From an uncultured Gemmatimonadales bacterium (GTDB lineage: Bacteria; Gemmatimonadota; Gemmatimonadetes; Gemmatimonadales; GWC2-71-9): a stretch of DNA of 64,000 nt. The notes beneath the pieces are model-generated. The model was given only the letters and a program-made list of their open reading frames with translations. It did not search any database and was not told where the DNA came from. The translations under genes were made by a program, and so were the position numbers. Each line of letters opens with the position of its first letter. Position 1 is the first letter of the stretch. The stretch lies in the NCBI GenBank assembly GCA_963840165.1, contig CAWIXT010000006.1, forward strand, positions 310,244 through 374,243, given 5' to 3'. Below are positions 23,725 to 45,957 of this stretch, piece by piece.

Positions 23725-23953
23725 CGCTATTCATAACCTTCCGGGACCGGATCACTACGCGAAGGATGGCCCCACCGGCGAGAGGAGCGTCGGAGGAGAG
23801 CTCGATGCCGCGTCCGTCCGTCACGTACGCTGCCCCGCACCCGACCTGGCGCTCCAGCTCCGGATCGAAGGCGCGCACCGCCGAAGCGACATCAGAGCCG
23901 GCCGGAAGATCCACCGTGCCGGCGTTCACGAACACCCGAATGGTTTCGCTCAC
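23711..23953 (-). CDS. Small hypothetical protein (80 aa), translationally coupled within the nucleoside operon
   Basis: ATG start. It overlaps the upstream 5'-nucleotidase stop by 4 nt and the add start by 14 nt. I did not recognise any motif. Confidence 0.45.
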   Translation of the reverse strand: MSETIRVFVNAGTVDLPAGSDVASAVRAFDPELERQVGCGAAYVTDGRGIELSSDAPLAGGAILRVVIRSRKVMNSDADA

Positions 23954-26900
23954 CGGCTCGCCTTAAATCCGGGAGAGGCCCGCACGTCCACCGGCTGGGG
24001 CAAACGCCGCAAATGGGTGACGAGGGCCTCCACGTCGAGTATGGTGGCCGGCGCGGAGGGCAGGCGGGCCAGCATCAGGTATCCATCGCCGCCGGAGGCC
24101 AGGAAGTCGTCCACCGCGAGGGTATACTCGGCGCCCGACTGGAGCTTCTGGCCCCGCTGTAGCTCTACGCTCCGCACCCGCTTTCCCGGAGGCCGCCGGG
24201 GGTCGTAGCGCACCTGGAGTCCTGCCAGGTAGGCCGCCGGACTGCCTTGCGCCAGGGCATGCTCCAGCACCTCCCGGAGCTGCCTGCCGGTCAGTGTCAC
24301 CTTTACGAGACTGCTTTGCGAGGGCTGAATCTCGAACAGCTGGCCGTAGGTGACCGGGCCGGCGGGAAGATCGGCTCGGACCGACGCGTCTCCTACCAGA
24401 CCGACATCCGCCCGCAGCACATTGCGGCGGGCTTCCGCGATCAGCCCGCCCAGACGCTGCTGCCGGTCTTCCCGGCTGAGCGGAGCCTTGATGGTTGCCA
24501 CCACTCGGCTGGTGATCGAGTCGGTCCGCCGGCGGTAGCTCTCCACCAGCGCTGCCATTTCCGGATCGGGCTTGACCCGGTCGGCGCTGACCGGCTCGAT
24601 TCGGGTCCTTACTTCTCTCCCCCCGGCAGAGGTCTTCACCAGATCGGCGACCGCGACGGAGCTGCCCTCCGGACCGGCCGCAACGATTGAGATCCCGGCG
24701 ATCCGGGTGTTGACCAACTGGTGCGTATGTCCGCCCACCAGCAGGTCCAGGGTCCGGGATTCTACGGCATCGGCCAAACGAATCGCCTCGCCGCTGCAGA
24801 CCGGCCCGTCGCAGCTCCCACCAGCGTGGGCCAGCAACACGGTGAGATCGGGGCGCAACGCCCGGACCTCGGCCAACACATCGTGAATAGCCAGCGCGCC
24901 CTCGCCGAAGCGAAGTCCGGCAGTGAATTCTGGCTTGACGCTGGTCTTGGCGTCGGCAGTAATGTAGCCCACTACCGCCACCTTCAGTCCTCCGACGGGC
25001 AGCACCATGTATGGCGCTACCCATTCGGGCCGCCGCCCGGTAGCCGAATCGAAGACGTTTGCCGCCAACCAGCGATATCGCGTCTCCGACATCCGGCGCC
25101 GCAGTGTGTCGAGCGACCACTGCAGGTCGTGCTCGGCCAGCGCGGTGGCCGCAATGCCCAGCCGGTTGAGCACCTCCACCATGGCGCGTCCGCGCGTGAC
25201 GTTGGATGCCACGCTGCCATGCATGGCGCCGCCGGCATCGAGCCGGAGCGCGGGACACGCGCAGTCCACTTCCAGGCTGTCCAGAGTCGCTGCGAGCGCC
25301 GCAGCTCCCCCGCTGGAAGTGCCCTGCTCCCGGATGTGAGGCAGCAAGGCCCCATGGAGATCCGCGGTGGCCAGCACCCGAAGGAGCAGCGTGTCCCGGG
25401 GACCCACCGGCACCGGGCGAGCCGGTACCCTGAACAGGCCGCGAACCGCGGTGGCAGCCACCTCCGGAACAATCCGCCACTCGCGAAGTCCATAGTCCGA
25501 AGGCTCGATGGTTTTCCGAGCCCGGACCTCCTGGATGAGGAGGTCCCGAATGTTTTCCTTCCTGTCATAGACCACCGGCGCGCCGCGCAGCATGGTGTAG
25601 CCACCCGCGCCGGTCTGGCGGTGGCTGTTCACCGCGAGGGTGAAGCTGTGGGTCGGGGTCACCGGGCGTCCACCGACGCCGAGATTGCGGATGCGGTCGC
25701 CGATCGGCCGCCGGAGGTCGATATCGTACCGGACGCCGGCGATCATGTCGAAATCGTAGCCGGGCACGCCCGGATCAATCGAGATGCGGCCGGCGGCATC
25801 GGCCCGGTAGTAGCGGGCGCTGTGTTCCAGATACTCCTTGAGCTGGGCGCCGCTGATGCGCACGGCGCGAAGGGTATTATCGAATGGATAGAGGGCCACC
25901 AGATCCCTGATCCGGATGGCGCCGCTGTCGAAACCGGCCCTGAGATTGAACGCTGACGCCGCCGATAGCTGGGCCCGGGTGCGCTCGAGCTGTACCGAGT
26001 GGATGAAACTCATGATTGCGCTTGGTTCCAGCCGGGCCGCCGCCGCGGACATCGGCCCCGTGGCCTCACCCAGTTGGGTGTCGGCCCAGCCGAGCACCGC
26101 GGCGTGCGCCGAAGCCAGCCGCTGGCTTATGCGGGCCGAAGGGGGCACCCCGGCCGTTGGCACCAGCTCCGCCGCGACCCGCACCGGCTTCCAGCCCCGC
26201 GCCTGTCGCACCAGAGAGATGTGCGTGACCGAGACACTCGCGCCGAACGGCCGCGGCTGCACGAAGTGCACCCCGCCTATGACCGTGTCGCGGATTTCCC
26301 GGTGCGAGTGGCCCACCACCACCAGATCGGGCGGCGAAGCAAGACCCGCGAAAGCGGCTGCCACGTGCTCCCCCCCAACGCCGGTGGTGTCGTAGGACGC
26401 CGCGCCACTGAGCCCGCTGTGTACGATGGCGATGGCCAGATCGGATTCGCTCCGCAGCTGATCCATCACCCGTGAGGCCGCGGCGGGAATCCGGTCGACC
26501 CGCACTCTTCCCGCGAGCTGGTCGCGGTTCCACACCTGCGCCCCGGGGGTGGTGAAGCCGGTCACACCGACCCGCACTCCCTGCCTCTGGAGCACCACGA
26601 AGGCGGGATAGAGCAGCGTGTCCGCAGGGAGAGAGTACAGATTGGCGCTGACGTAGGGAAACGCGGCGCCCGCAAAGATCGCCCGCATGGCTTGGAGTCC
26701 CCAGTCGAACTCGTGGTTCCCCGGAGTGGCGACGTCGTAACCGGTCAGATTCATCGCTTCCACGACCGGGTTGGGATCCCGCGGAGCAACCCGGCCGAAA
26801 TAGGCGGCAAACGCGTCGCCCTGGATGGCGTCCCCCGCGTCCACCAGCACCACCTGCCCTGGATAGCGCGACTTCAAGGAATCCACGATCGTAGCCACGC

Positions 26901-27084: not shown

Positions 27085-27199
27085 GCAGGAATATCGGGAA
27101 GGGCGAGGAGGGAAGGAAGGCATGCGCTGAGCGAACCCGAAGGGACGCGGCTGCCGCCCTTGCGAACATTCACCTGGCCGTATATCTGTTTAGGCGAAT

Positions 27200-27559
27200 A
27201 TGGCCACCTCGGCTGCAGATCTGTTGCTCGCGGTTGCGGAGCCCACCCGGCTGCGCATCCTGAACTGCCTGGCGGCAGCGCCTCTGTTCGTCTCCGACCT
27301 TCAAGCCGTGCTCGACCTGCCCCAGCCCACGGTATCCCGCCATTTGCAGGTGCTCCGCCGGGCCGACCTGGTGCGGGATACGCCGATTGCCCAGTTCGTG
27401 CTGTACCGCTTGCGGCGAAACGGAGGAGCCCACGGACGAATGCTGGCCGCCATCCTCGATGCCGTCGTCCATGACGATGGCGTGCTCCGCGCCGAGCGGC
27501 ACCGCGCCGCCGATCGGAGCCGGTCCCATACCCGAAGCCGAGTCCAGGAGCCCGCATGA
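27200..27559 (+). CDS. ArsR/SmtB-family transcriptional regulator
   Basis: LAVAEPTRLRILNCL...VSDLQAVLDLPQPTVSRHLQVLRRADLV winged-helix signature. The stop overlaps the next start (ATGA). Confidence 0.8.
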   Translation: MATSAADLLLAVAEPTRLRILNCLAAAPLFVSDLQAVLDLPQPTVSRHLQVLRRADLVRDTPIAQFVLYRLRRNGGAHGRMLAAILDAVVHDDGVLRAERHRAADRSRSHTRSRVQEPA

Positions 27560-28263
27560 CGCATCGGATTCTCGTAGTCGACGACGAGCCCGACATCACG
27601 GCCCTGGTGGCGTATCACCTGGCAAAGTCAGGGCTACGCGTCTCGACCGCCGCGAACGGGACGGATGCCCTCAAGGCGGCCCGGGAGGAGCGACCCGATA
27701 TCGTCATCCTCGATCTGATGCTGCCAGGTGTATCGGGCTACGATATCCTGGCCGAGTTGCGCAAACGGGAGGAAACCCGCGATGTCGGCGTCATTCTCCT
27801 GACCGCGCGGCGGGAGGAGACCGACCGAATTCGAGGTCTCTCCCTGGGGGCGGACGACTACCTCACCAAGCCGTTCTCGCCGCAAGAGCTGTCGCTTCGG
27901 GTGAGCGGTTTGCTGCGACGGCTGGGCAGCCCTGCCGTCAGTGCGGGGTCAACCCTGAGCGCCGGTCCGATCGTGATCGATCGGTCGGCTCACCGGGCCA
28001 CCATTCACGGGCAGGAGCTGAGCCTGACGGCGACCGAGTACAAACTCCTGCTCACGCTGGTCGAGCGCCGGGGGAGGGTGCAATCGCGGCCCCAGCTGCT
28101 CGAGATCGTCTGGGAAGCGCAGCCCGACATCCAGACCCGTACCGTGGACATGCATGTGCAGCGGCTCCGGACCAAGCTGGGTGACGCCGGGAAACTGATC
28201 GAGACGGTGCGGGGATTCGGCTACCGCTTCAAGGGGAATGAGCGCGGGGCCCGGGCCCGGTGA
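27556..28263 (+). CDS. phoB: OmpR/PhoB-family response regulator
   Basis: ILVVDDEPDI, the phospho-acceptor context DIVILDLMLPG, and KPF. The C-terminal winged helix has LTATEYKLLLTLV...VDMHVQRLRTKL. The symbol is inferred from family plus pst neighbourhood. Confidence 0.75.
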   Translation: MTHRILVVDDEPDITALVAYHLAKSGLRVSTAANGTDALKAAREERPDIVILDLMLPGVSGYDILAELRKREETRDVGVILLTARREETDRIRGLSLGADDYLTKPFSPQELSLRVSGLLRRLGSPAVSAGSTLSAGPIVIDRSAHRATIHGQELSLTATEYKLLLTLVERRGRVQSRPQLLEIVWEAQPDIQTRTVDMHVQRLRTKLGDAGKLIETVRGFGYRFKGNERGARAR

Positions 28264-30014
28264 CATTTGTCCGCCGATTGGTCCTGGGCTCGGTCCTCAT
28301 ACTGACCCTGGCTGTCGCCATCCTGCTCTGGGTCGCCGAACGGTCGCTCCGGCGAGATCTCGAAGGCGAGATCGCGCACACGCTGGAGAACGAGGCCAAG
28401 CTGGTTCGCGAGGCCCTCCGCCCGGACTCCACGGCCTGGCAAGCCGCCGTCATCCAATTGGCCCGCCAGGTCGGGCATCGGATCACCCTCGTCGACCGCG
28501 AAGGCCGGGTCCGGGCCGACAGCGACTTCCCCGCCGGACCGCTCCCCGCCATCGAGAGCCACGCCCAGCGCCCTGAGGTGGTCGTCGCTCTGAGGGGAGG
28601 CCGGGGCGTGGCAAGTCGGCGCAGCGACACCGTGGGGCAGCCGTTTCTCTACGTGGCGATACCAGGGGGGCCGGGCGTGGTGCGGGTCGCCGCGGGGCTG
28701 GAGCAGGTGGACGAGGTGGTCCGCCGGGCCCAGAGCGCCGTCGCCGGTGCCGCGTTACTGGCGCTGCTGGTCGGAAGCCTGCTGGCGCTGGCCGCAGGAA
28801 GGTCCATCGCGCAACCGCTCATCCAGATCAGCGCCGCCGCCCGGGCCATCGCGGCCGGCGCTCCGCCGCGATTTCCCCGATCCGGTATTCCCGACATTGA
28901 CGGGCTGGTACAGGCGCTGCGGCAGATGCACCGGCAGCTGGGTGACCGCTTCGAGGATCTCCGGCGGGAGCAGGCCGAAACGGCCGCTTTGGTGGAATCG
29001 ATGGTCGAAGGGGTCATCGCCGCGGACGGGCGGGGCCGCATCATCACGGCCAACGTGGCGGCGCGCCGGCTGCTCGGCTACAGCCTTACGGAGGAGCTGC
29101 CCGACCTACCGGAGCTCTTCCGGGTGAAGGCCGCCCGGCAGGTCGTGGACGCCGTCCTCCAGGGGCAAGCGGTGCAGGACCGGGAGCTGGAAGTGGATGA
29201 GCGCGCCATCCTGATGAACGCCAGGCCGCTCCCCTCGGGTGGCGCGGTGCTGGTGATCCACGATCTGACAGAGATCCGGCGGCTGGAAACAGTGCGGCGC
29301 GACTTCGTGGCCAATGTGTCCCACGAGCTCAAGACCCCGCTGACCTCGATCTCCGGCTATGCCGAGACGCTGCTGACCGACGCGCCCGATCCGGACACGA
29401 CCCGCCGCTTCCTGGGTACCATCCTGGAGAACGCCCGCCGGATGCAGCGGCTGGTAGACGATCTGCTGGATCTCGCACGGATCGAGGTTGGTCGCTGGCA
29501 GCCGGAGCCTGAGCCGACTGACGTGGCTGAAACGGCCCGGGAGATGTGGAGTGAGCTGGCCGAGCGGGCCGCGGCACGGGGCGTCGAGTTCACCGTGGAG
29601 ACGGAGCCGGCCGCGGGCAACCTCCATGCGGACGCCGACGCATTGCGCCAGATCCTGACCAATCTGCTGGAGAATTCACTCCGGCACACCGGCCGGGGCG
29701 GACGCATTGTCTGTCGAAGCCGGCTGGAAAACGGCGGAGTGGCGGTGAGCGTCTCAGATAATGGCTCGGGGATTCCCCATGAGCATCTGCCGCGGATCTT
29801 CGAGCGATTCTATCGAGCCGATCAGTCTCGCTCACGGGACGAGGGGGGCACAGGCCTGGGCCTGGCTATCGTGAAGCACCTGGTCGAGGCGCACGGCGGC
29901 AGGGTCTATGCAGAAAGTGAGCGGGGGGTAGGAACCACGGTCACCTGCTGGTTCCCTGCATCGAGCGCCACGCCCAGCGATCCTCTGGTGGAGGCCTCGC
30001 AGACCTCCCGATAG
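28260..30014 (+). CDS. phoR: Sensor histidine kinase, PhoR-like (2 TM, periplasmic domain, HAMP, PAS, HisKA, HATPase)
   Basis: H-box SHELKTPLTSISGY, N-box LLENSLRH, and G-boxes DNGSGIP and GTGLGLAIVKH. The GTG start overlaps the phoB stop. Confidence 0.75.
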   Translation: MTFVRRLVLGSVLILTLAVAILLWVAERSLRRDLEGEIAHTLENEAKLVREALRPDSTAWQAAVIQLARQVGHRITLVDREGRVRADSDFPAGPLPAIESHAQRPEVVVALRGGRGVASRRSDTVGQPFLYVAIPGGPGVVRVAAGLEQVDEVVRRAQSAVAGAALLALLVGSLLALAAGRSIAQPLIQISAAARAIAAGAPPRFPRSGIPDIDGLVQALRQMHRQLGDRFEDLRREQAETAALVESMVEGVIAADGRGRIITANVAARRLLGYSLTEELPDLPELFRVKAARQVVDAVLQGQAVQDRELEVDERAILMNARPLPSGGAVLVIHDLTEIRRLETVRRDFVANVSHELKTPLTSISGYAETLLTDAPDPDTTRRFLGTILENARRMQRLVDDLLDLARIEVGRWQPEPEPTDVAETAREMWSELAERAAARGVEFTVETEPAAGNLHADADALRQILTNLLENSLRHTGRGGRIVCRSRLENGGVAVSVSDNGSGIPHEHLPRIFERFYRADQSRSRDEGGTGLGLAIVKHLVEAHGGRVYAESERGVGTTVTCWFPASSATPSDPLVEASQTSR

Positions 30015-31153
30015 CTCAGGTCCAGACGGTCCAACTCGCGGTCCCACGTGAGCCCCTCGGCCGTGCGGCGAGCCCCTCGAGAAAGCCGCTCGGTGAGACT
30101 CCAATCCTCAGCCAGTTTCACCATTGCTGCTGCCATTGCCCCAATGTCCCCTTCGGGGCAGGCAAGACCGTTCTTGCCATTGCGAAGATGATCCCGCACC
30201 CCGCCCGCCGGGCTCGCAATCACGGGGAGGCCGCTCGCCATAGCTTCCAGGACCACAAGCCCCAGGGTTTCCGTTACGGAGGCGAAGACGAACGCGTCAC
30301 AGTTCGCGTAGAGATCGGGCAGCCGGCTTTTCCGCTCCAGGAATCCCAGGAAGGTGACTCCGGGCGGAGCAGCGGCCCGGAGTTCGGCTTCGCGGGGGCC
30401 CGTGCCCGCCATGATCAGGTGGATGACACCTCGCGGCAGGCTTTCGCAGGCCAGTCTAAACGCGTGAATGACCTGGTCGGCCCGCTTCTCGGCGGCCAGC
30501 CTGCCGACATACAGGAACGTGAAGCGGCTCCCTATGCCGAAGGCGGCACGCATCTCCTGAGAGCGCCGCCCCGGATGGAACAGCTCCGCATCCACACCGC
30601 GTCCCCACACCTCGGCGTCAGAAACATTCAGCCGAACCAGATCATCCCGCGAGGCGGTTGACGGAGTGTAGACCCGGCGGCTCCGCCGATGGAACCGACC
30701 CAGGTACGACGACACGGCTCCCCGAAGCCAGGATGTTCCGTACGCGACGGCGTAGCGCGCGAAGTCGGTGTGATACGACGACACCATCGGGACTCCCGCG
30801 CGGGCCGCGGCGATCTGACCCATCCGGCCCACTCCGAATTCGGTGGCACAATGAATCAGGTCGGGCCGAAATTGTCGAACCAGCGCGGTCAGGGCGCGGG
30901 AAGAGGGCAAGGCCAACCGCACTTCGGGGTAGAGCGGCAGCGGTACGCTGGAAATGGAGACCAGCTCGACAGGAAGGCTCCCCGCCCCCTCCGCGCCATC
31001 CCAGTCCGAGGCTCCTGAGGCTGCCGGATATCGTGGCGCCACTACTAGGCAATCCCAATTGCGGCGTGCCAGTCCCCCCACCGATAGGGAGGTGACCACC
31101 GAGACCCCATTGAGCTGAGGTGGATATGTATCGGTGCAATAGAGAACCCGCAT
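29906..31153 (-). CDS. GT4-family glycosyltransferase
   Basis: The ATG at 31153 gives MRVLYCTDTYPPQLNGVS. The ExFG-type region is SVTETLGLVVLEAMASGLPVIAS. The 3' end overlaps the convergent phoR by about 108 nt. Confidence 0.8.
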   Translation of the reverse strand: MRVLYCTDTYPPQLNGVSVVTSLSVGGLARRNWDCLVVAPRYPAASGASDWDGAEGAGSLPVELVSISSVPLPLYPEVRLALPSSRALTALVRQFRPDLIHCATEFGVGRMGQIAAARAGVPMVSSYHTDFARYAVAYGTSWLRGAVSSYLGRFHRRSRRVYTPSTASRDDLVRLNVSDAEVWGRGVDAELFHPGRRSQEMRAAFGIGSRFTFLYVGRLAAEKRADQVIHAFRLACESLPRGVIHLIMAGTGPREAELRAAAPPGVTFLGFLERKSRLPDLYANCDAFVFASVTETLGLVVLEAMASGLPVIASPAGGVRDHLRNGKNGLACPEGDIGAMAAAMVKLAEDWSLTERLSRGARRTAEGLTWDRELDRLDLSYREVCEASTRGSLGVALDAGNQQVTVVPTPRSLSA

Positions 31154-31192
31154 CGAGACTCCCGGAGTGGACGTCCCAAGCTGCCCCCGGGA

Positions 31193-31209
31193 CGTCACGG
31201 TTTGGTCAA
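31193..31209 (-). promoter_or_regulatory. Candidate Pho box (two 11-bp-phased units) upstream of the GT4 gene
   Basis: The minus strand reads TTGACCaaaccGTGACG, 40-56 nt upstream of the GT4 ATG. It matches the unit and spacer pattern seen at 40792 and 37234. Confidence 0.35.
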
Positions 31210-31326
31210 ATGTGAGTCTCGATTGGTACCGGGATGCCCGGCGGGTCGAGCGATCCGGTGTTCGTTACCGATTCGTCGCGCGCCTGCGGCCATTCGGTTG
31301 CGAGTTGTGGAGAGATTTGTGGATAC

Positions 31327-31863
31327 ATGGAAACATCGATCCTGGTCCGAATCAGCGCCCGGGACAGAGTTCTTATGGCCCGGTACGCCATTGCGCCCAC
31401 CGCGCCGCAACCCTTGCGCGCGGTATGGACCGCGATCACCCACCTCGGTGGCACCGGTCCTACGCTTCTGGCGGCAGGCCTGCCATGGTTCGCGTGCTGC
31501 GCCTTGCACCACGCCTCGCGACTCGCCCTGGCAACGCTGGTACTCTCACATCTCGTGGTGCAGCTCGTGAAACGGACGGTGGGCCGGGGCCGGCCCGCGA
31601 GGTGCGACTGCGTCGCTCTGGTGCGGGAGCCGGACCGATTTTCGTTTCCTTCCGGACATTCGACCGCTGCCATGGCCGTCGCGCTTTCGTATGGCGCCGT
31701 GTTCCCGGCCTGGGCCCTTCCACTGGTGATCGTCGCCGTCGTGGTTGGATTCTCCCGGATCCGCCTGGGGGTGCACTATCCCAGCGATGTTCTCGTCGGC
31801 CAGCTCATTGCAGCGGCCACAGCTGGTGCGGTGTCGCTGTTCCCTTGGCTCAGCCCACCGTGA
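31327..31863 (+). CDS. PAP2-family phosphatase (phosphatidic acid / lipid phosphate phosphatase type)
   Basis: All three PAP2 motifs are present: KRTVGRGRP, PSGHS and SRIRLGVHYPSDV. The protein is polytopic. The ATG at 31327 is preferred over the longer ORF start at 31234. Confidence 0.85.
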   Translation: METSILVRISARDRVLMARYAIAPTAPQPLRAVWTAITHLGGTGPTLLAAGLPWFACCALHHASRLALATLVLSHLVVQLVKRTVGRGRPARCDCVALVREPDRFSFPSGHSTAAMAVALSYGAVFPAWALPLVIVAVVVGFSRIRLGVHYPSDVLVGQLIAAATAGAVSLFPWLSPP

Positions 31864-34220: not shown

Positions 34221-34326
34221 GTGGCCTCGAGTCAGAAGGGTTCCATAAAGTCGGGGTTACTGCCAGTCCGCGAATCAATGGTTTGCGTACCACCGATCGA
34301 GCACGGAAACGTCACGATCGGGTCAC

Positions 34327-37175: not shown

Positions 37176-37203
37176 CACAACGATTGTGCAACGGAACGGT
37201 CAC
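37176..37203 (-). promoter_or_regulatory. Candidate degenerate Pho box upstream of the TonB receptor gene
   Basis: The minus strand reads GTGACCgttccGTTGCAcaatcGTTGTG: three GT-initiated hexamers at exact 11-bp phasing, 93-120 nt upstream of the ATG at 37083. The second and third units are imperfect. Confidence 0.3.
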
Positions 37204-37233
37204 GGGGCACTTCCGGGGGGCACACCTACGCCT

Positions 37234-37261
37234 GGGACCCGTCGTTTACCTGTTCGTTACA
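37234..37261 (+). promoter_or_regulatory. Candidate Pho box (three 11-bp-phased units) upstream of the porin-pstS1 transcription unit
   Basis: GGGACCcgtcgTTTACCtgttcGTTACA, followed 8 nt later by TATGCT (37270-37275) as a possible -10. The porin ATG is at 37350. Confidence 0.45.
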
Positions 37262-37349
37262 GAAAAGCTTATGCTCCGTGACCTGATTTCAGCTTCTTAG
37301 CACCCGTGTTGGACGGCACCGTCTTCCACCACCATCCCGAAAGGGGCCT

Positions 37350-38534
37350 ATGAGCCTGCAGGCGCGAAGAACCGCGATGGGAATCGGGCTGGTTGTTGCT
37401 CTCGGAGCAGCTACGGCGAGTGCCCAGACTACCTACCCGAACGTCAAACTCTCGGGACGCCTCCAGGCCCAGGCCTATTACTTCTCCAATGAGGAATTCG
37501 CTGCCGTGGTGGGGCCCACCAGCAGCATGTTCATCCGGCGGGCCCGGATCGAGGCGCGGGGGCAGATCTCCGAGAACGTGAGCGTATACGTGCAGCCGTC
37601 GTTCGAAGGCGGACGCAATCTCAGCGGCCTGACCACCACCTGTACCTCAACCCCCGTGCCGGCCGGGGGTGGCACTCCGGTGATCACCTGCCGGAGCACC
37701 GGCCGCAGCGGATTTCGGCTGCGCGACGCCTACATTGACGTGCTCTTCAGTCCGGTAACCAGCAAGGGAGCGCTATACCTCCGGGCCGGACAGGAGAAGC
37801 GCCCCTTCAGCCGCTACGAGCTGACTTCTTCCAACAACCTGCCGTCGATCGAGCGCGGCGGCGGAACGGGCCTGCTGCCCCGCGCGTCCAATGATCTGTT
37901 CGGGGGAGCCGGTTTTCTCTCCCATGATGTGGGCGCCAGCGTGCGCTACGAGTACAAGCTGGGGGACACCCGCCTGATCACGGTCAAGTTCGGCGCCTAC
38001 AACGGGCAGGGCGAGAGTCTCAACGACGTCAACAGCCAGAAGAGCTTCGGGGCCCGGGGAACCGTGGGACTCACGTCCAAGCTCGAAGTCGGCGGCTCGT
38101 GGTTCGCTCATGACGGCATTGTCACGGTAGGAGGCGTGCCCGACTCCAGCTTCACCAACTATGCGTTCGACATTGACGCTCAGTGGGGCAAGCCGGGCGA
38201 CGAAGGACTGTTCGCCCTGGCGGAGTACCTGCACGGCAACGACGCTACCGCGTCAAAATTCACAATCCAGGGCGTGCAGGCCGTTGCGGCGTACAACATC
38301 CGCATGACCAGCCCCACGTCCTGGCTCTACGCGATCGAGCCGTCGTTCAGGGTTGACCTGGCGGATCCCAACACCGACGCGGAGGGTGATCGGGTCACCA
38401 CAATCACCGGCGTCTTCGGCATCTACATGTCGAGCCGGGCGCAGCTGCGGGTGGGCTACGAACGGCAGAGCTTCCAGGACGACCTGCTTCCGAGCATCAG
38501 CGGCGTGCGCAGCGCGCTGACCGTGAACTTCTAA
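37350..38534 (+). CDS. Phosphate-selective porin O/P family outer-membrane protein
   Basis: Signal peptide ...ALGAATASAQ. The N-terminal KLSGRLQAQAYYF...MFIRRARIEARGQISENVSVYVQPSF pattern is typical of OprO/OprP-like porins. The protein ends in ...SALTVNF. It lies directly upstream of pstS. Confidence 0.75.
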   Translation: MSLQARRTAMGIGLVVALGAATASAQTTYPNVKLSGRLQAQAYYFSNEEFAAVVGPTSSMFIRRARIEARGQISENVSVYVQPSFEGGRNLSGLTTTCTSTPVPAGGGTPVITCRSTGRSGFRLRDAYIDVLFSPVTSKGALYLRAGQEKRPFSRYELTSSNNLPSIERGGGTGLLPRASNDLFGGAGFLSHDVGASVRYEYKLGDTRLITVKFGAYNGQGESLNDVNSQKSFGARGTVGLTSKLEVGGSWFAHDGIVTVGGVPDSSFTNYAFDIDAQWGKPGDEGLFALAEYLHGNDATASKFTIQGVQAVAAYNIRMTSPTSWLYAIEPSFRVDLADPNTDAEGDRVTTITGVFGIYMSSRAQLRVGYERQSFQDDLLPSISGVRSALTVNF

Positions 38535-38550
38535 TCAACGAGGACCGAGG

Positions 38551-39594
38551 ATGACCACGCGACATCTGCTGGTGCTGGGGGCAGCCGCCCTTGCTTTCGG
38601 CACGCCTGCCGCGGCCCAGAAACTGACCGGCGCCGGCGCAACGTTCCCGAACCCGATTTACACCAAGTGGTTCGACGCGTACAACAAGAAGACCGGCATC
38701 GAGATCAACTACCAGTCTATCGGGTCCGGCGGAGGCATCCGCCAGTACACCGAGGGCACCGTCGACTTCGGCGCCACCGACGGCCCCATGAACGAGTCCC
38801 AGATCCAGGCGGTGAGCGGCAACGTCCTCCATGTTCCCGCCGTGCTGGGCGCGGTGGTGGTGACCTACAACCTCCCCACCCTGGGAGACACCAAGCTCAG
38901 GTTCGACGGCAACCTGCTGGTCGACATCTTCATGGGCCGGGTGACCAAGTGGAACGACCCCAAGATCGCGGCGCTCAATCCGGGCGTGAAGCTGCCCGGC
39001 ATAGACCTCATCGTGGTGCATCGCTCCGACGGTTCCGGCACCACCTATGTGTTTACCGACTACCTGAACAAGTTTTCCCGGGAGTGGAAGGACAAGGTCG
39101 GCTACGCGACGTCGGTGAACTGGCCGGTTGGGCTGGGTGGCAAGGGCAATGAGGGCGTGACTCAGCAGGTAAAGCAGGTCGAAGGCGCGCTCGGGTACGT
39201 GGAGCTGATCTATGCCCTGTCCAACAACCTGCCGTACGCCCAGGTCAAGAACCCAGCGGGAAATTTCAGCACTCCGTCTCTGGAATCGGTGACTGCCGCC
39301 GCCGCAGGCATCAAGCTGCCCAAGGACACCGACTTCCGGGTGTCGATCACCAATGCGCCGGGCGCGGACGCATACCCAATCGCCTCGTTCACCTGGCTGC
39401 TGGTTCGGAAGGACAACAAGGATACTGCCAAGGCCAAGCTGATCCGGGATTTCCTGACCTGGATGATTACACCCGAGGCCCAGAGAATGGCCTCCGACCT
39501 CCACTATGCACCGCTGCCGGCGCCGGTGATCGCTCTGGTCCAAGAGCGCCTGTCCACGCTGAAAGCGGGCGGCAAATCAATCGCCTCGCGCTGA
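38551..39594 (+). CDS. pstS: Phosphate ABC transporter substrate-binding protein (signal-peptidase-I type)
   Basis: LTGAGATFPNPIYTKWF, YQSIGSGGGIRQ, TVDFGATDGPM and HRSDGSGTT. A GAGGA Shine-Dalgarno precedes the ATG. Confidence 0.9.
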   Translation: MTTRHLLVLGAAALAFGTPAAAQKLTGAGATFPNPIYTKWFDAYNKKTGIEINYQSIGSGGGIRQYTEGTVDFGATDGPMNESQIQAVSGNVLHVPAVLGAVVVTYNLPTLGDTKLRFDGNLLVDIFMGRVTKWNDPKIAALNPGVKLPGIDLIVVHRSDGSGTTYVFTDYLNKFSREWKDKVGYATSVNWPVGLGGKGNEGVTQQVKQVEGALGYVELIYALSNNLPYAQVKNPAGNFSTPSLESVTAAAAGIKLPKDTDFRVSITNAPGADAYPIASFTWLLVRKDNKDTAKAKLIRDFLTWMITPEAQRMASDLHYAPLPAPVIALVQERLSTLKAGGKSIASR

Positions 39595-39613
39595 CGGGGC
39601 ACCTGCGTCTGGG

Positions 39614-39643
39614 AACGGCCGGGGCCGCGAGGCGCCGGCCGTT
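39614..39643 (+). terminator. Weak stem-loop (possible attenuator) after pstS1
   Basis: AACGGCCGG-12 nt-CCGGCCGTT forms a 9-bp stem. Only TTT follows, so it is not a canonical intrinsic terminator. Confidence 0.3.
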
Positions 39644-39706
39644 TGCACATCCGGCGGAACCGGATCACCTTGGAGCGAGGGTTAGCGCTCCACCCTGGAG
39701 GAGCCT

Positions 39707-40768
39707 TTGCCGAGAACCAGATGTCACCACCTGATCGGCCTGACGGTTGTCGTGGCCGCATGTGGAGGGGACCAGCGGACGCCAGGAGCATCCACGGACG
39801 GCTCCGCCCCACGACGGAGCGGTCCGGCGCTGACCGGCGCCGGGGCTACCTTCCCCGCTCCACTCTACACCAAGTGGTTCGATGTCTTCGCCCGGGAGAC
39901 CGGGATTCAGATCAATTACCAGTCGATCGGATCCGGCGGCGGCATCCGTCAATTTATCGAGGGCACGGTGGACTTCGGCGCCACCGACGGTCCCATGACG
40001 GACCAACAGATTGCGGCGGTTGAAGGAAACGTCCTGCACCTGCCCACCGCGCTCGGTGCCGTCAGCGTGACCTACAACCTCCCCACGCTCGGCGCGACCC
40101 CGCTTGCCTTCGACGGTCGGGCCCTGGCCGGGATTTTTCTGGGACGGATTACCCGCTGGAACGATCCGCGGCTGGCAGCCCTGAATCCCGGAGTGAGCCT
40201 GCCTCCGGACGATATCGTAGTGGTTCGGCGCTCGGACGGGTCGGGGACCACCTTCATCTTCACCGACTATCTCTCCAAGGTCTCGCCCGAATGGACCGAT
40301 AACGTCGGAAGGGGGACGGCGGTGAACTGGCCTGTGGGGCTCGGCGGCAAGGGCAATGAAGGTGTCACCCAGCAGGTCAAGCAAGCCCCGGGCACTATCG
40401 GGTATGTCGAACTGATTTATGCCATCTCCAACAAACTCCCGTCAGCCCGGATCCGGAACGCGGCCGGGGCGCTGGTCCAGCCGACCCTGAAGAGCGTGGC
40501 GGCCGCCGCGGCGGGCGCGAAGCTGGGACCCGACACTGATTTCCGGGTCTCGATCACCAACGCACCGGGTGGCGATTCATACCCGATTGCGTCCTTTACC
40601 TGGCTGTTGATCAGAAAACAGGATCCCGACACCATCCGGGCCCGGACCATCGCGACCTTTCTGAAATGGATGCTGGAGCCACCGGCCCAGCGGATGGCAG
40701 CCGACCTGCACTACGCGCCATTGCCGGTTCCGGTCATCGAGCTGGCCCGGAGAAGGATTCCGGACTAG
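39707..40768 (+). CDS. pstS: Phosphate ABC transporter substrate-binding protein, lipoprotein paralogue
   Basis: A TTG start is preceded by GGAGGAG. LIGLTVVVAACGG is a lipobox. The same PstS motifs are present (GAGATFPAPLYTKWF, YQSIGSGGGIRQ, RRSDGSGTT). Confidence 0.9.
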   Translation: MPRTRCHHLIGLTVVVAACGGDQRTPGASTDGSAPRRSGPALTGAGATFPAPLYTKWFDVFARETGIQINYQSIGSGGGIRQFIEGTVDFGATDGPMTDQQIAAVEGNVLHLPTALGAVSVTYNLPTLGATPLAFDGRALAGIFLGRITRWNDPRLAALNPGVSLPPDDIVVVRRSDGSGTTFIFTDYLSKVSPEWTDNVGRGTAVNWPVGLGGKGNEGVTQQVKQAPGTIGYVELIYAISNKLPSARIRNAAGALVQPTLKSVAAAAAGAKLGPDTDFRVSITNAPGGDSYPIASFTWLLIRKQDPDTIRARTIATFLKWMLEPPAQRMAADLHYAPLPVPVIELARRRIPD

Positions 40769-40791
40769 TCCCTTTTCTAAGGCGCGCGCCC

Positions 40792-40819
40792 GTGACCCGT
40801 CCGTTACAAAGCCGTGACG
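40792..40819 (+). promoter_or_regulatory. Candidate Pho box (three perfect 11-bp-phased units) upstream of pstC
   Basis: GTGACCcgtccGTTACAaagccGTGACG. TAAGAT at 40841-40846 is a possible -10, only 5 nt before the pstC ATG at 40852. Confidence 0.5.
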
Positions 40820-40851
40820 ATTCGCGGAGAAGCCGCCTGTAAGATCCTCCC

Positions 40852-41838
40852 ATGACCGTCACCACCGAGCCCGTTGCCACCGCTGCTCCCCCAGCCGCTC
40901 CGTCTTTGGAGCGGGCCGAGTATGGCGACCGCGCCTTCAAAGGGATCCTGACGCTCGCCGCGCTGGCCGTGCCGATCCTGCTGGGCTTTCTGGTCTACGA
41001 GCTATGGGATGGGGCCTCGCTGGCTATTGCGCGCTATGGCTTTGGGTTCGTCACCAGCAGCACCTGGGACCCGGTGGCGGAGGATTTCGGCGCGCTGCCG
41101 CTGATCTTTGGCACTCTGGCCTCCTCTCTCCTGGCTCTCCTCATTGCCGTGCCGCTCTCGCTCGGCGTCGCCATTTATCTAACGGAGTTTGCCCCCAAGC
41201 CGGTGCGACAGCCGGTCGCCTTCCTGATCGGGTTGCTGGCGGCCATCCCCAGCGTAGTCTATGGGCTGTGGGGGATCTTTGTGCTGATCCCGCTGCTTCG
41301 CACGACCGTCTTTCCCTTCCTGAGAGACACGCTCGGCTTCCTGCCGTTCTTTCAGGGGCCGATTTACGGACCGTCGATGCTGGCGGCGGGAATCATTCTG
41401 GCCATCATGGTGATGCCCTACATTATGTCGGTCGGACGCGAAGTGCTCCTGGCTGTACCCAACACCCAGCGAGAGGCCGCGTTGGCCCTGGGAGCGACCC
41501 GCTGGGAGGCGGTAACGACAGCGGTCCTGCCCTACGCGCGGTCCGGCATCGTTGGCGCCGTCATCCTGGGGCTGGGCCGCGCGCTGGGCGAGACCATGGC
41601 GGTCACGATGCTGATCGGAAATCGGCACGAGATCGCGACCTCCCTCTTCGCGCCCGGCTATACCATGGCCGCGGCGATCGCCAATGAGTTCTCCGAGGCG
41701 GTCGGCGACTTGCACCTGTCCGCGCTGGCCTACGTCGCCTTTCTGCTGTTCCTCGTCACCGTGATCGTCAACGCCGGCGCGCGGCTGCTGATCTGGCGGG
41801 TGGCCCGTGGGTCAGGGGCAGGGAGCAGCGCGCTGTGA
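40852..41838 (+). CDS. pstC: Phosphate ABC transporter permease PstC
   Basis: 328-aa polytopic ORF with the EAA-type loop [15 protein letters not shown]. Its position after pstS supports the call. Confidence 0.9.
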   Translation: MTVTTEPVATAAPPAAPSLERAEYGDRAFKGILTLAALAVPILLGFLVYELWDGASLAIARYGFGFVTSSTWDPVAEDFGALPLIFGTLASSLLALLIAVPLSLGVAIYLTEFAPKPVRQPVAFLIGLLAAIPSVVYGLWGIFVLIPLLRTTVFPFLRDTLGFLPFFQGPIYGPSMLAAGIILAIMVMPYIMSVGREVLLAVPNTQREAALALGATRWEAVTTAVLPYARSGIVGAVILGLGRALGETMAVTMLIGNRHEIATSLFAPGYTMAAAIANEFSEAVGDLHLSALAYVAFLLFLVTVIVNAGARLLIWRVARGSGAGSSAL

Positions 41839-42680
41839 ATCGCCGGACGCTGCGGCGGTTCTTCAGCAATTTGATGGTGGGCCTGATGATCGGGTCCGTC
41901 GTCGTGGCGCTGCTGCCGCTCTTCTTCATCCTGATCAATTTGATCCTGAAGGGAGCGGGGAGCTTATCGCCGGACTTCTTCACCAAGATGCCGGCACCCG
42001 CGGGGGAGAGTGGGGGCGGGGTTGCTCACGCACTGGTAGGCACGCTCCTCATCGTGGGAATGGCGAGCCTGATGGGATTGCCCATCGGCATCGGCGCGGG
42101 CATCTACTGCGCCGAATACCCCAACAGCCGGCTCACCTGGGTCACCCGATTCGTGGCCGATGTCATGAACGGCACGCCGTCCATCGTGGTCGGCGTGTTC
42201 GCCTGGGCCTGGATCGTGGCGCAACAGAAACACTTCTCGGCGCTGGCGGGAAGCGTCGCGCTGGCGCTGCTCATGATTCCCATGGTCCTCCGGACAACCG
42301 AAGAGATGATCAAACTGGTGCCGAACTCGCTGCGCGAGGCGGCGCTGGCCCTGGGCTATCCGCGCTGGCGGACCAGTCTGTCGGTGGTGGTACGTGCAAC
42401 CTTGCCCGGCATCATGACCGGAGGCCTGCTGGCGGTGGCTCGGATCGCGGGAGAAACCGCCCCTCTCCTGTTCACCGCTCTCGGTAGCCAGTACCTGAGC
42501 TTCGATATCAATCAGCCGATGGCGGCCCTGCCGCTGACGGTGTTCACCTATGCGACCGGCCCCTATGAGGAATGGCACCAGTACGCGTGGGCGGCCGCGC
42601 TGGTGCTCATCATGGTCGTCTTCGTTCTGAGTCTGGGAGCCCGACTGGCGGTTCGCCGGAGGTTCACCCTCAATGGCTGA
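41835..42680 (+). CDS. pstA: Phosphate ABC transporter permease PstA
   Basis: 281-aa polytopic ORF with [15 protein letters not shown]. The start overlaps the pstC stop. Confidence 0.9.
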
Positions 42681-43509
42681 ATCCGCGGTGAGCAAAGCGC
42701 TTCCAGTTTCCGCCGGCGCCATACCGCCGGCTCCCGTGGCCCCTCCGGGGGCCCAGCCCAAGATGGCCACCGACAAGCTCACTGCCATGTATGGCAAGTT
42801 CACGGCGGTGAAGGGAGTGTCGCTCGGCTTTGCGCCCAATCAGGTGCACGCCCTGATCGGACCTTCCGGCTGCGGCAAGTCCACCTTCCTGCGCACCCTC
42901 AACCGGATGCACGAGCTTTCGGACAACGGCTGGATTACCGGCCGGGTCCTGCTCGAGGGCGAGGACATCTATGCGCCGAGGGTGAATGCCATGCAGCTGC
43001 GCCGCCGGGTCGGGATGGTCTTCCAGCGTCCCACACCGTTCCCCACCATGTCGGTGTACGACAACGTCGCGGCCGGGCTCCGGGTGAACCGCAGCCTCCC
43101 TCGCTCCGAGCTCGATAGCGTGGTGGAGCGTTCGCTGCGCCAGGCCGCTCTCTGGGAAGAGGTCAAGGACCGGCTCAAGGCCAGTGCCATGGCGCTTTCG
43201 GGCGGCCAGCAGCAGCGGCTCTGTATCGCCCGAACCATTGCGCCGTCGCCGGACGTGGTCCTCCTGGACGAGCCTACGGCCTCGCTCGATCCCCAGGGCA
43301 CCCAGCGGATCGAGGAGCTGCTGTTCGACCTGAAGCGGCACTTCACGATCGTCATCGTCACCCACAACATGCAGCAGGCCGCCCGGGTGTCCGACACCAC
43401 GACGTTTTTCTACCTCGGCACCATGGTCGAGACCGGCCGTACCCGGCAGATCTTCACGGCGCCACGGAACGAGCAGACCGAGGCCTACATCACGGGAAGG
43501 TTCGGATGA
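42673..43509 (+). CDS. pstB: Phosphate ABC transporter ATP-binding protein PstB (intact copy)
   Basis: Walker [10 protein letters not shown], signature [13 protein letters not shown], Walker [12 protein letters not shown], and C-terminal EAYITGRFG. Confidence 0.9.
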
Positions 43510-44354
43510 GCACTACCATGACTCCCAGGCCCTTCGTCACTGCACCGCAGGTAACGCTGGCCCCGCGCCAGCCGGTGGCCCCACTCGGTTCCAGAGGAGC
43601 CCCAGCGGTGGACGTGCGGGACTTCAGCTTCTTCTACGGGCCCCGTCAGGCGCTCGAAGAATCTGACCTTCGCCATCGAGCGCCGGGCGGTCACCGCGAT
43701 CATCGGCCCCTCGGGGTGCGGCAAGTCCACCTTCCTCCGCTCCATCAACCGGTTGAACGACCTCATCCCAGGCGTCCGCCACCGCGGGGATATCCTGGTC
43801 GAGGGCACCTCCGTCTTCGGTTCCGGGACCGATCTGGTCTCGCTGCGCCAGCGGGTGGGCATGGTGTTTCAGCGGCCCGAACCCGTTTCCCAAGTCGGTC
43901 TTCGACAACGTGGCATACGGGCCGGCACTCAACGCCCTGGTCACGCGGCGCGACCTGCCCGATCTGGTCGAGCGCTGCCTGCGTCAGGCCGCGCTGTGGG
44001 ATGAAGTGAAAGACCGGCTCGAGGAGCTCGGCACCGGCCTGTCCGGAGGGCAGCAGCAGCGGCTCTGCATCGCCCGGGCGCTGGGCAATCAGCCCGAGGT
44101 GCTGCTGATGGACGAGCCCTGCTCGGCACTCGACCCCATCGCCACTCAGAAGGTGGAGGAGCTGATCTTCGATCTGAAGCAGCACTACACCATCGTGATC
44201 GTAACCCACAACATGCAGCAGGCCGCGCGGGTCTCGGACTACACCGGCTTCTTCGACCGCGGGCGAGCTCATCGAGTTCGACGAGACCGAGCGGCTCTTC
44301 ACCAAGCCGCAGCACGAGCGGACCGAAGCGTACATCACCGGGAGATTCGGATGA
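43506..44354 (+). pseudogene. pstB: Second PstB ATP-binding protein; three +1 insertions
   Basis: The protein reads correctly only by shifting at about 43650, about 43880 and about 44258. The recovered sequence is FYGPRQAL / [25 protein letters not shown]...VGMVFQRP / [14 protein letters not shown]...[13 protein letters not shown]...DYTGFFDR / [30 protein letters not shown]. The three insertions total 3 nt, so the stop is back in the original frame. Confidence 0.85.
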
Positions 44355-45061
44355 GCCTCGACGTCCATCGCCACTTTCACGATGAGCTGAGCCACGTCAA
44401 GGTCCGGCTGCTGACCATGTCGGGCGAGGCGGAAGCCGCGCTCGGGCTGGCAGTAGAGGCGCTGCTGGAGCGGGACAGCGAGAAGGCCCAGCGGGTCATC
44501 GCCGGCGACCGGGTGATCGACGCCATGGAAGTCGAGATCGAGGAGCAGAGCATCAATCTCCTGGCGTTGCAGCAGCCGATGGCCCGGGACCTCCGGATGC
44601 TCACATCGGCGCTCAAGATCGCCAACGATCTCGAGCGGGTGGGAGACCACGCGGTCAACATCGCGCAGTCCGCCGAGCGGCTGAACCAGGCCCGTCCCAT
44701 CGCGCCAGAGCCCGAGATCGTGGACATGGCCCGGCTGGCGCGGGAGATGCTCTCCGATGCGCTCGAGGCCTTCATCCGGGGAGACGCCGAAGCGGGGCGC
44801 GAAGTCTGCCGCAGGGACGACAAGGTGGATGCGCTGCATCGGTCGGTATTCCGGATTTTGCTGACCCACATGATGGAGGATCCCCACACCATCGGCTCCG
44901 GTATGGAGCTGTTTCTGGTGAGCCGCAACCTCGAACGGGTGGCCGACCTGGCTACGAACATCGGCGAAGACGTGGTGTTCCTGGTGGAGGGCCGCTCAAT
45001 CAAGCACCACTCCGAGGATCGGGGCGAAGCCCGCAAGGATCCGGCACCGACCAGGAAGTGA
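44351..45061 (+). CDS. phoU: Phosphate signalling complex protein PhoU
   Basis: The ATG at 44351 overlaps the pstB2 stop (ATGA). Both PhoU repeats are present, with [15 protein letters not shown] and [16 protein letters not shown]. Confidence 0.9.
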
Positions 45062-45957
45062 AGCGGCCCGCCGAGCGCCTGGCGGCAATCGACGTGGGCT
45101 CCAACACCGTCCTCCTGACGGTGGCCGATTTCGACCGGGATACCGGCCTGACCGTCGTCGAGGAGGCCGAAGACCAGCCCCGCCTCGGCTCAGGAATCGC
45201 CGGGGGCCGCCTGAGTGAGGCCTCCATGGCGCGGGCCCTCCTCTCCCTGACCCGCATGAGAGACACATGTCGGCGCCTGGGCGTGCAGCGAACGGCGGCC
45301 GCAGCTACCGCCGCCGTGAGAGAAGCCGAAAATGGGCCCGACTTCGTGGAGCGGGTTCGGGCGCTCGACATCCCGCTCCGCATCATCTCCTCCGACATCG
45401 AGGCGGCACTCTCCTACCGCTCGGCAGCCTATCGCTTCCCCGGCGATGAGCCCACGCTCGTCGCCGACATCGGTGGCGGCAGCCTGGAGCTGATCAGCTC
45501 GAGTGGGGGGCGCGCGCTGCGGTCCGACTCCTTGCCGCTGGGAGCAGTGAGGCTGACTGAGCTCGGGACCTCGGGCGAGCAGCTACACGCGCACATCCGA
45601 GGCGTCCTCAGCCGAGCGATGGTGCCCGAATGGCGGCACTCGAGAATCATCGGGTCGGGAGGAACCTTTGCGACCCTGGCGGCCATGGTGCTCGCCGGTC
45701 GGAAGTCCAGCACCCACCCCGTCCACGGCACGACCATTCGGGCGGGAGAGGTGACGCAGCTGCTGGATACCTTGTCGGGCCTCACGCCGGAGCAGAGGCG
45801 TCAGACGCCGGGACTCAAGCCGGAGCGGGCCGACATTATCGTGGCGGGTATTGCTGTGGTCGCCGAGCTGCTGGTAATGGCCGAGGCGGGAGGCGTTACG
45901 GTCAGCGGGTTCGGCTTGAGAGACGGGCTACTGCTCGAGATGGCCGGAATGCAATAG
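45058..45957 (+). CDS. ppx: Short Ppx/GppA-family phosphatase (ASKHA domains only, no HD domain)
   Basis: [16 protein letters not shown] and [11 protein letters not shown]. It is 299 aa. The GTG start overlaps the phoU stop. Confidence 0.8.

Follow-up and report, generated by a model that had tools for sequence, protein, structure and literature searches.

Does a long run of phosphate genes in one bacterial genome reflect a chance juxtaposition of neighbours, or a regulon that has been gathered into one place? The question is raised by a 64,000-nt stretch of contig CAWIXT010000006.1 from an uncultured Gemmatimonadales bacterium, referred to here as the window, and within it by the block at 23950-45957. 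A sequence-only reading had described this block as a coherent phosphate-acquisition neighbourhood running contiguously from a secreted double 5'-nucleotidase, through ArsR-PhoB-PhoR, a GT4 glycosyltransferase, a PAP2 phosphatase, two lipoproteins (here LP198 and LP558), a TonB-dependent receptor (TBDR), an OprO/OprP-type porin and two PstS proteins, to PstC, PstA, two PstB, PhoU and a short Ppx, and each of these components was located there by Pfam and NCBIfam searches (Table 1). The same gene order was found in 56 species-level Gemmatimonadales loci, so the clustering is not a product of chance; the cluster is real and probably co-regulated, and we consider it likely that the block represents a Pho-regulon supercluster in the form that this takes in Gemmatimonadales.

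Gemmatimonadota are abundant in soil, and their type species came into culture as a polyphosphate accumulator. Genomic work on the phylum has so far recorded the presence of pstSCAB and phoBR only (PMC10581226). What the locus offers beyond this is a testable Pho-box consensus, (CGTKAC-N5)x2-3, with a candidate regulon map, and a beta-helix lipoprotein/TonB-receptor family, induced by shortage of inorganic phosphate (Pi) in Caulobacter and Flavobacterium, that is tied here to predicted Pho control in a third phylum.

Gene order and CGTKAC arrays

At about 65% G+C the window yields many spurious frames in raw lists of open reading frames (ORFs); genes were called from the GC content by codon position and checked against Pfam and NCBIfam, and 88% of the window is coding. 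The source was placed as a Gemmatimonadales metagenome-assembled genome (MAG) by its porin homologues, and synteny was followed by tblastn with all window proteins through the neighbourhoods of relatives and a scan of species-representative genomes, which gave the 56 loci to which the core of the cluster is common. The order PstC-PstA-PstB1-PstB2-PhoU is kept in 33 of the 34 loci that reach that far, and Ppx follows PhoU in 28 of 32; at the other end the 5'-nucleotidase lies to the left of ArsR in 18/19 loci, and in 28/30 the phoBR operon begins with ArsR, on the left of PhoB. One versus two copies of PstS is about an even split. The juxtaposition is thus not unique to this assembly, and the arrangement that had been called unusual is real, but it is the standard layout in Gemmatimonadales and has an analogous Pi-induced cluster in Flavobacterium johnsoniae (PMC8115612).

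Good in-silico evidence of co-regulation, for most units, comes from the intergenic regions of the block, in which CGTKAC hexamers recur at an 11-bp period. The exact two-unit pattern occurs three times in the window against 0.04 expected, and three-unit arrays scoring at least 15/18 occur four times against 0.43 expected, all four being intergenic and within the block, 5' of GT4, LP558, TBDR and pstC. Together with the arrays at PAP2 and the porin and a site upstream of a long-form ppx (ppx2) outside the block, there are seven arrays, all of which point at the gene that follows, with 33-93 nt between the end of the array and the start codon. As sequence evidence, cross-species footprinting is decisive for the pstC array, since CGTGAC-N5-CGTTAC-N5-CGTGAC is invariant in 48 loci (45 distinct sequences) with spacers that vary freely. 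Boxes also recur in relatives 5' of the porin (about 27 matches in + orientation), the TBDR (16 matches in its orientation), LP558 (matches at this position in 9 relatives), GT4/PAP2 and the ppx2 insert, the last with perfect sites upstream in L010, L029 and L032, and only about 8 of some 170 box matches in relatives fall within coding sequence.

Direct repeats at one helical turn (11 bp) are the binding mode of OmpR/PhoB regulators, and ArsR/SmtB proteins bind palindromes. The 11-bp geometry of the CGTKAC arrays fits head-to-tail binding by a winged-helix regulator of the OmpR/PhoB family, and from this geometry together with the canonical pst target we infer that PhoB is the protein that binds them. 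Under phosphate limitation PhoR would phosphorylate PhoB, which would then bind the boxes 33-93 nt 5' of the starts and switch the units on. The porin-pstS1(-pstS2) unit would provide outer-membrane anion entry and periplasmic capture, and pstC-pstA-pstB1-pstB2-phoU-ppx would provide import, feedback and polyphosphate hydrolysis; the transporter parts are complete, with PstS, two permeases, PstB ATPases and PhoU. A 74-nt stretch around the hairpin after pstS1 (39592-39665) folds at -45.8 kcal/mol (z = -4.27), and this hairpin may favour pstS1 expression. The porin aligns to PF07396 over profile positions 1-163 of 370 only, and it had no match in the NCBIfam search of the window proteins.

A -10-like TAAGAT ends 7 nt 5' of the pstC ATG (40839-40852), and no Shine-Dalgarno sequence stands there; a pstC transcript driven by the box may, on this sequence, be leaderless. 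Scans with sigma-70 and terminator consensus sequences gave no excess over shuffled sequences.

Many of these parts are familiar. The classical system of Escherichia coli and Pseudomonas aeruginosa comprises pstSCAB-phoU, phoBR, OprO/OprP and Pho boxes made of 11-bp direct repeats, and Pst, PhoU, a putative PhoB/PhoR-type pair, the phosphate-selective porin family and 11-bp direct repeats are all found in the block. The repeat unit, however, is CGTKAC and not CTGTCAT, PstS and PstB are each encoded twice, pstC has a predicted internal box-driven promoter, the pstS unit opens with the porin gene, ArsR heads the phoBR operon, and PhoR is a protein of 584 aa (573-575 aa in relatives) with an N-terminal extracytoplasmic region and HAMP. 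Bacillus subtilis has a pstS-C-A-BA-BB operon and the Pho-regulated trifunctional nucleotidase YfkN, and it has in common with the block two PstB genes in tandem and a secreted protein that fuses a CpdB-like to a UshA-like nucleotidase half; here, by contrast, the nucleotidase scores 425 bits against the YfkN equivalog cutoff of 1646 (PRK09419), lacks a box and heads a nucleoside-salvage set. Neither tandem pstB genes nor short forms of Ppx are new in themselves. What we regard as new is a box peculiar to this lineage, the placing of ArsR at the head of the phoBR operon, the internal box-driven promoter predicted for pstC, the slot architecture described below and the probable occurrence of an ElpS-type family in a third phylum; the cluster as such is not unprecedented, with analogous Pi-induced clusters in Bacteroidota and a lipoprotein-TBDR pair in Caulobacter.

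The phoR-porin slot and its modules

The part of the cluster that varies lies between phoR and the porin, a junction visible in 36 loci. It is empty in 16 of them and holds the full GT4-PAP2-LP198-LP558-TBDR set, as in the window, in 11; three carry GT4-PAP2 only and two GT4-ppx2-PAP2, and ppx2 alone, PAP2 alone, LP198-LP558-TBDR and LP198 alone are each seen once. In 12 more loci the TBDR, with or without lipoproteins, can be seen 5' of the porin on a contig that then ends, and at least 23 related loci have the LP558/TBDR gene pair. The segment is a variable slot that takes zero to three self-contained, box-equipped modules depending on the species. A further-reaching proposal, which we put forward tentatively and rate as possible rather than probable, is that the junction is a plug-in slot gaining and losing self-contained box-bearing modules (GT4-PAP2, the long ppx and LP198-LP558-TBDR), and that the beta-helix lipoprotein/TonB-receptor pair is a cross-phylum, PhoB-controlled outer-membrane system for a phosphorus substrate, found in Alphaproteobacteria, Bacteroidota and Gemmatimonadota. 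In one relative (L003) a TBDR-lipoprotein module at 903-4114 is followed by genes of the LMWPc (low-molecular-weight phosphatase) and Sulfatase families, which may be further phosphorus-related genes; phoBR does not occur within 10 kb upstream of this module.

GT4 and PAP2 are divergently transcribed, a correction to the earlier layout, and the promoter between them bears boxes in both orientations. The best NCBIfam matches of GT4, both far below cutoff, are GlcN-phosphatidylglycerol synthase (161 bits) and Mgs (75 bits). In PAP2 the motif KRTVGRGRP..PSGHS..SRIRLGVHYPSD can be read directly; its NCBIfam matches to SepP and PgpB are below cutoff, and its nearest solved relatives are LpxE (PDB 6ebu, E=1.8e-8) and PgpB/YodM (5jki). 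The lipid remodelling that the sequence-only reading had raised as a possibility gains support from the two-way boxes, the kinship of PAP2 with LpxE and PgpB and the lipid-glycosyltransferase matches of GT4. These features support a phosphorus-sparing change of the envelope, in which diacylglycerol would be made and glycosylated or, equally possibly, the phosphate of lipid A or another lipid would be removed. A comparable pairing is known from the PlcP-Agt pathway of phosphorus-sparing lipid remodelling described by Sebastian et al. (2016, PMC4796936) and in P. aeruginosa (PMC8528852). Like that pathway, the block pairs a putative lipid-directed phosphoesterase with a glycosyltransferase behind predicted Pho boxes, but here the phosphoesterase is an LpxE/PgpB-like PAP2 membrane phosphatase and the genes are divergent, not an operon; Pfam revealed no PlcP-type metallophosphoesterase in the block.

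LP558, whose gene lies directly downstream of that for the TBDR, combines fn3 with a beta-helix domain, and its homologues carry a precomputed PF28492 assignment. Its profile matched only fn3 domains in the PDB, an exhaustive profile search was dominated by multi-fn3 giants with uninformative cluster names, and its AlphaFold2 model (mean pLDDT 49.5) is confident for residues ~30-220 only. The beta-helix part was more informative, as tblastn against annotated plasmids found homologues of 30-40% identity in Gamma- and Alphaproteobacteria and Bacteroidota, a spread that agrees with the published description of the family. The Indioceanicola homologue (40% identity, E=1e-55), present as two tandem copies, lies ahead of genes for a TonB-dependent receptor and for type II secretion (gsp), and that of Hymenobacter lies between a secreted nuclease and a TBDR; the gene context on a Marinobacter plasmid is uninformative. 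On sequence and context, LP558 groups with lipoproteins that are partnered by a TBDR, one of which is encoded in an elpS-like setting. LP198 has about 350 homologues, the few named ones all from Gemmatimonadales; it had no domain match, its AlphaFold2 model has a pLDDT of 56, and Foldseek against the PDB gave no match at E < 0.001. A few NTF2/SnoaL-like entries were among the weak Foldseek matches for LP198 and were not used.

The elpS setting is that of Caulobacter crescentus, in which le Blastier et al. (2010, PMC2996285) described ElpS (cc0170) as a phosphate-starvation-induced outer-membrane lipoprotein with an LAGC lipobox, encoded in the layout elpS-cc0171 (a TonB-dependent receptor)-gsp, that raises extracellular phosphatase activity and is itself no phosphatase. 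In both systems an outer-membrane lipoprotein with an LAGC lipobox adjoins a TonB-dependent receptor; the likeness is drawn by proxy, through the lipoprotein-TBDR-gsp arrangement of the Indioceanicola homologue. Unlike the Caulobacter locus, the block has no type II secretion genes, and LP558 has an additional fn3 domain and a single copy of the beta-helix.

The closest described analogue of the cluster, judged by its parts list, is the PUSIV/phoBR cluster of F. johnsoniae (Fjoh_0541-0549), which Lidbury et al. (2020, PMC8115612) showed by transcriptomics and proteomics to be induced on Pi depletion, and which holds a glycosyltransferase assigned to lipid remodelling, OprP, PhoR, PhoB, a TonB-dependent transporter (TBDT), the beta-helix lipoprotein FII, of pectin-lyase fold, which the authors related to ElpS, and a further lipoprotein. 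The TBDT families PF07715, PF13715 and PF14905 are the same as those of the window TBDR, and LP558 is likened to the beta-helix lipoprotein Fjoh_0546 by description and gene context. That cluster belongs to another phylum and differs in gene order and strand layout; its glycosyltransferase is of PF04101 and not GT4, and it lacks the pstSCAB-phoU-ppx genes, PAP2, ArsR and the nucleotidase operon, all of which are present here. In the proposed scheme the surface lipoprotein LP558 and LP198, with the TBDR, would capture and import a larger phosphorus-containing substrate, or aid extracellular phosphatase activity.

The regulatory operon and competing explanations

In the arsR-phoB-phoR operon the stop and start codons of successive genes overlap, and the PhoB-like and PhoR-like proteins have the domain architecture of an OmpR/PhoB-family regulator and a HisKA/HATPase kinase. 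The operon would be transcribed from its own promoter with an ArsR-type palindrome; the promoter elements, identified in an alignment of 15 orthologous intergenic regions, are sigma-70-like and kept across them, and the palindrome is a putative ArsR autoregulatory operator, the arrangement being typical of ArsR-family operators. The protein is of the ArsR/SmtB family and lacks an ELCVCDL-type metal site, and we are not aware of such a regulator taking part in Pho signalling. In the longest-ORF reading the 3' ends of phoR (+) and GT4 (-) overlap by 109 nt (29906-30014).

Considering the block as a Pho-regulon supercluster, a number of observations weigh against it. At two mismatches the motif is not enriched (23 window matches versus 17.8 expected), as one would expect when a pattern is short and degenerate; the boxes at the porin and PAP2 are weak here (10/12), the CGTKAC motif is unlike the CTGTCAT box of E. 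coli, the scores of PhoB and PhoR lie below the NCBIfam equivalog cutoffs, and PhoB binding of the repeats is itself a prediction. Sixteen related species have no GT4-to-TBDR modules at the slot, so these are accessory, and the roles of LP558, LP198, GT4 and PAP2 are putative, with poor structure models for the two lipoproteins. No box was found 5' of the 5'-nucleotidase or arsR-phoBR in the window or the relatives scan, including the spacer between them in aligned relatives. The earlier expectation that the whole block would respond together is thus met in silico by boxes at pstC, the porin, TBDR, LP558, GT4 and PAP2, but a joint response is not indicated for the nucleotidase and regulatory units. 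Some of these points would suit a narrower explanation, in which only pst-phoU-ppx, and perhaps porin-pstS, are Pi-regulated, GT4, PAP2, the lipoproteins, TBDR and nucleotidase are unrelated neighbours (serving envelope polysaccharide, or iron or glycan uptake) and the weaker boxes are chance matches: every box in the block other than that of pstC is imperfect (15/18, or 10/12 at the porin and PAP2), enrichment vanishes at two mismatches, the slot modules are missing in 16 species, and the families of GT4 and the TBDR are broad and could fill many roles. We nevertheless think it unlikely, because the strong arrays are all intergenic and correctly oriented, the same promoters are boxed in many other species, ppx2, as the alternative insert, comes with a perfect box of its own, and lipoproteins likened to LP558 and their TBDR partners are induced by Pi starvation in two other phyla (PMC2996285, PMC8115612).

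The arrays might also be real and yet answer to another OmpR-family regulator, or to the upstream ArsR, with a signal other than or besides phosphate, such as arsenate or envelope stress. The hexamer is indeed unlike the Pho boxes of proteobacteria, the phoBR operon begins with an ArsR-family gene in most loci and the equivalog scores of PhoB and PhoR are low; however, 11-bp direct repeats have the OmpR/PhoB geometry and not the palindromic form bound by ArsR/SmtB proteins, a separate palindrome exists at the arsR promoter, and the best-conserved array fronts pstCAB-phoU, the canonical PhoB target, beside phoBR, which makes this account distinctly improbable. That the block of 22 kb came in by horizontal transfer, as a phosphate island, is more improbable still, although its functional coherence is high and its 7.2-kb GT4-to-TBDR segment is present or absent between close relatives. 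The sequence-only reading had suggested GC3 and codon usage as a check for acquisition as a unit; GC3 is 0.78-0.83, and GC, GC3 and codon-usage distance are like those of the flanks for every module. Both flanks are kept across the order, only the 7.2-kb segment varying, and there is no integrase or transposase gene in the Pfam scans, no tRNA at the block edges and no flanking repeat.

Flanking genes, repeats and frame breaks

Table 1. Features of the window (positions in the whole stretch; bit scores are given with the family cutoff).
Feature	Position	Strand	Remarks
ppx2, long-form ppx/gppA with HD domain	~45-1666	-	Outside block, 22 kb away
Perfect 2-unit site CGTTAC-N5-CGTGAC, 5' of ppx2	1717-1733	-	Outside block
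7-9-nt tandem array sites	6080/6203, 8322, 10527/10603, 11150/11224, 12933/13190, 21243, 46886/46980, 49851, 56050/56161, 57200
Purine-nucleoside phosphorylase (PNP)	20431-21279	-	Pfam; above NCBIfam cutoff
CNT nucleoside transporter	21276-22685	-	Pfam
Adenosine deaminase	22699-23724	-	Pfam
orf80, 80 aa	23711-23953	-	Between nucleotidase and adenosine deaminase
Secreted double nucleotidase, 1057 aa	23950-27123	-	Pfam Metallophos and two 5_nucleotid_C; signal-peptide-like N-terminus
arsR promoter	27159-27201	+	-35-like CTTGCG 27159-27164; -10-like TATATC 27181-27186
Inverted repeat, consensus ATATTCG-N6-CGAATAT	27182-27201	+	Overlaps -10 and arsR start codon
arsR	27200-27559	+	Pfam
phoB-like	27556-28263	+	Pfam; best NCBIfam match PhoB, 244 bits vs cutoff 296
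phoR-like, HAMP-PAS-HisKA-HATPase	28260-30014	+	Best NCBIfam PnpS/PhoR, 328 vs 400; 297 vs 334
GT4 glycosyltransferase	29906-31198	-	Pfam; likely true start ATG 31153
Array toward GT4, 3 units, 15/18	31194-31221	-	40 nt 5' of ATG 31153
PAP2 lipid-phosphate phosphatase	31234-31863	+	Likely start 31327 or 31378
Weaker array toward PAP2, 2 units, 10/12	31263-31279	+
LP198 lipoprotein	31883-32479	-	LAGC lipobox
LP558 lipoprotein, fn3 then beta-helix domain	32544-34220	-	LAGC lipobox, residues 22-25; Pfam fn3
Array toward LP558, 3 units, 15/18	34300-34327	-	Between TBDR stop and LP558 start
TBDR: CarboxypepD_reg, Plug, barrel	34327-37083	-	Pfam; TonB-Xanth-Caul type
Array toward TBDR, 3 units, 15/18	37177-37204	-
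In-phase array toward porin	37244-37282	+	Units score 4, 6, 2, 6
Porin, OprO/OprP family	37350-38534	+	PF07396 (Porin_O_P) 50.6 bits, cutoff 20.9
pstS1, signal peptide	38551-39594	+	TIGR00975 396 bits, cutoff 205
Strong hairpin, putative attenuator or stabiliser	39614-39643	+	Directly 3' of pstS1 stop
pstS2, lipoprotein with VAAC lipobox	39707-40768	+	TIGR00975 378 bits, cutoff 205
Perfect array CGTGAC-N5-CGTTAC-N5-CGTGAC	40791-40818	+	33 nt 5' of pstC ATG
pstC	40852-41838	+	Pfam BPD_transp_1
pstA	41835-42680	+	Pfam BPD_transp_1
pstB1	42673-43509	+	Pfam ABC_tran
pstB2	43506-44354	+	Split over three frames in assembly
phoU	44351-45061	+	TIGR02135 227 bits, cutoff 130
Short ppx, 299 aa, without HD domain	45058-45957	+	Ppx-GppA Pfam match; TIGR03706 219 bits vs cutoff 307
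Aldehyde dehydrogenase, 829 aa	46046-48535	-	Pfam; two separate Aldedh matches
Deoxyribose-phosphate aldolase (deoC)	48765-49781	-	TIGR00126 147 bits, cutoff 117

The TBDR scores 268 bits against TIGR01782 (cutoff 310). Both pstB genes of the sequence-only reading are present, but the second is not a clean ORF, being interrupted by a single extra G at each of 43656, 43879 and 44261. Deletion of the three restores a clean 281-aa PstB with Walker A, signature and Walker B motifs, and the orthologues called in L001 and L003 are intact, with the same length of 281 aa. The 43879 insertion is found at the identical position in two long-read MAGs of other species (L054 and L022), and that at 44261 also in L054; the remaining aligned assemblies have none of the three, and L053 has extra G's elsewhere. 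The same defect affects ppx2, which carries 8 single-base insertions relative to intact 548-aa orthologues, and which, as a box-preceded gene outside the block, also shows that not all Pho functions lie within it. All 11 characterised events (three in pstB2, eight in ppx2) are +1, none lies in a homopolymer, and they occur at or beside wobble positions where relatives have alternative bases.

A GC3-based scan for frame breaks was too noisy, and a frame-tracking hidden Markov model (HMM) was used; it recovered the known breaks and added about 11 others, which all lie between 6.2 and 14.5 kb (6273-14490), in the M1 aminopeptidase gene pepN (at least 5), trmD (2), rimM (1) and ffh (2), and from 14.5 to 64 kb pstB2 alone is affected. 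No essential gene, ffh, trmD and rimM among them, can be a pseudogene, and the breaks are therefore artefacts of the consensus, concentrated in certain stretches of the contig, and not phosphate-specific biology; we infer that they arose where both alleles of a strain mixture were retained. pstB2 was considered as a true pseudogene and rejected, as its catalytic motifs are intact, its frame segments are conserved and the same kind of break occurs in essential genes, and the artefact evidence likewise disposes of a recoding site. Clusters of +1 insertions in a long-read MAG can thus mimic pseudogenes, and automatic annotation would call them so.

To the left of the block, orf80 and the genes for adenosine deaminase, CNT and PNP share the strand of the nucleotidase, with overlapping or near-abutting ends and an order kept in relatives. 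With these co-directional salvage genes after the nucleotidase the left edge of the block is arbitrary, and the theme reaches 20431. By NCBIfam the nucleotidase joins a CpdB-like N half to a UshA-like C half, the YfkN-type architecture, and together with the deaminase, transporter and PNP it would complete a nucleotide-scavenging route; in keeping with its lack of a box, this set is perhaps regulated differently. The product of orf80 had no Pfam or NCBIfam family match and is kept at 50-87% identity in all relatives that reach the position. The right flank (46046-49781, -), also kept in relatives, is possibly the downstream half of nucleoside catabolism, so that the Pho cluster would lie between two halves of a plausible nucleotide-nucleoside-sugar catabolic route.

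Rfam found no RNA family inside the block, its sole matches in the window being two tRNA genes at 3054-3126 (-) and 62068-62149 (+). Tandem Repeats Finder (TRF) found multi-copy 7-9-nt arrays at about 10 loci in the rest of the window and no such array within the block, which confirms that the block is free of the repeat elements of the window, although with the block making up 34% of the window the chance of this is about 0.02, a marginal significance. The arrays, such as (GGCGGACA)x18, are often intergenic inverted pairs some 70-130 nt apart, and in relatives similar (GGAAGGAC)n arrays fill the spacer between the 5'-nucleotidase and arsR. One inverted pair of 8-nt arrays (46886-47046) lies within the aldehyde-dehydrogenase ORF, which is 812-822 aa long in relatives, and may represent either a low-complexity linker or two genes read through.

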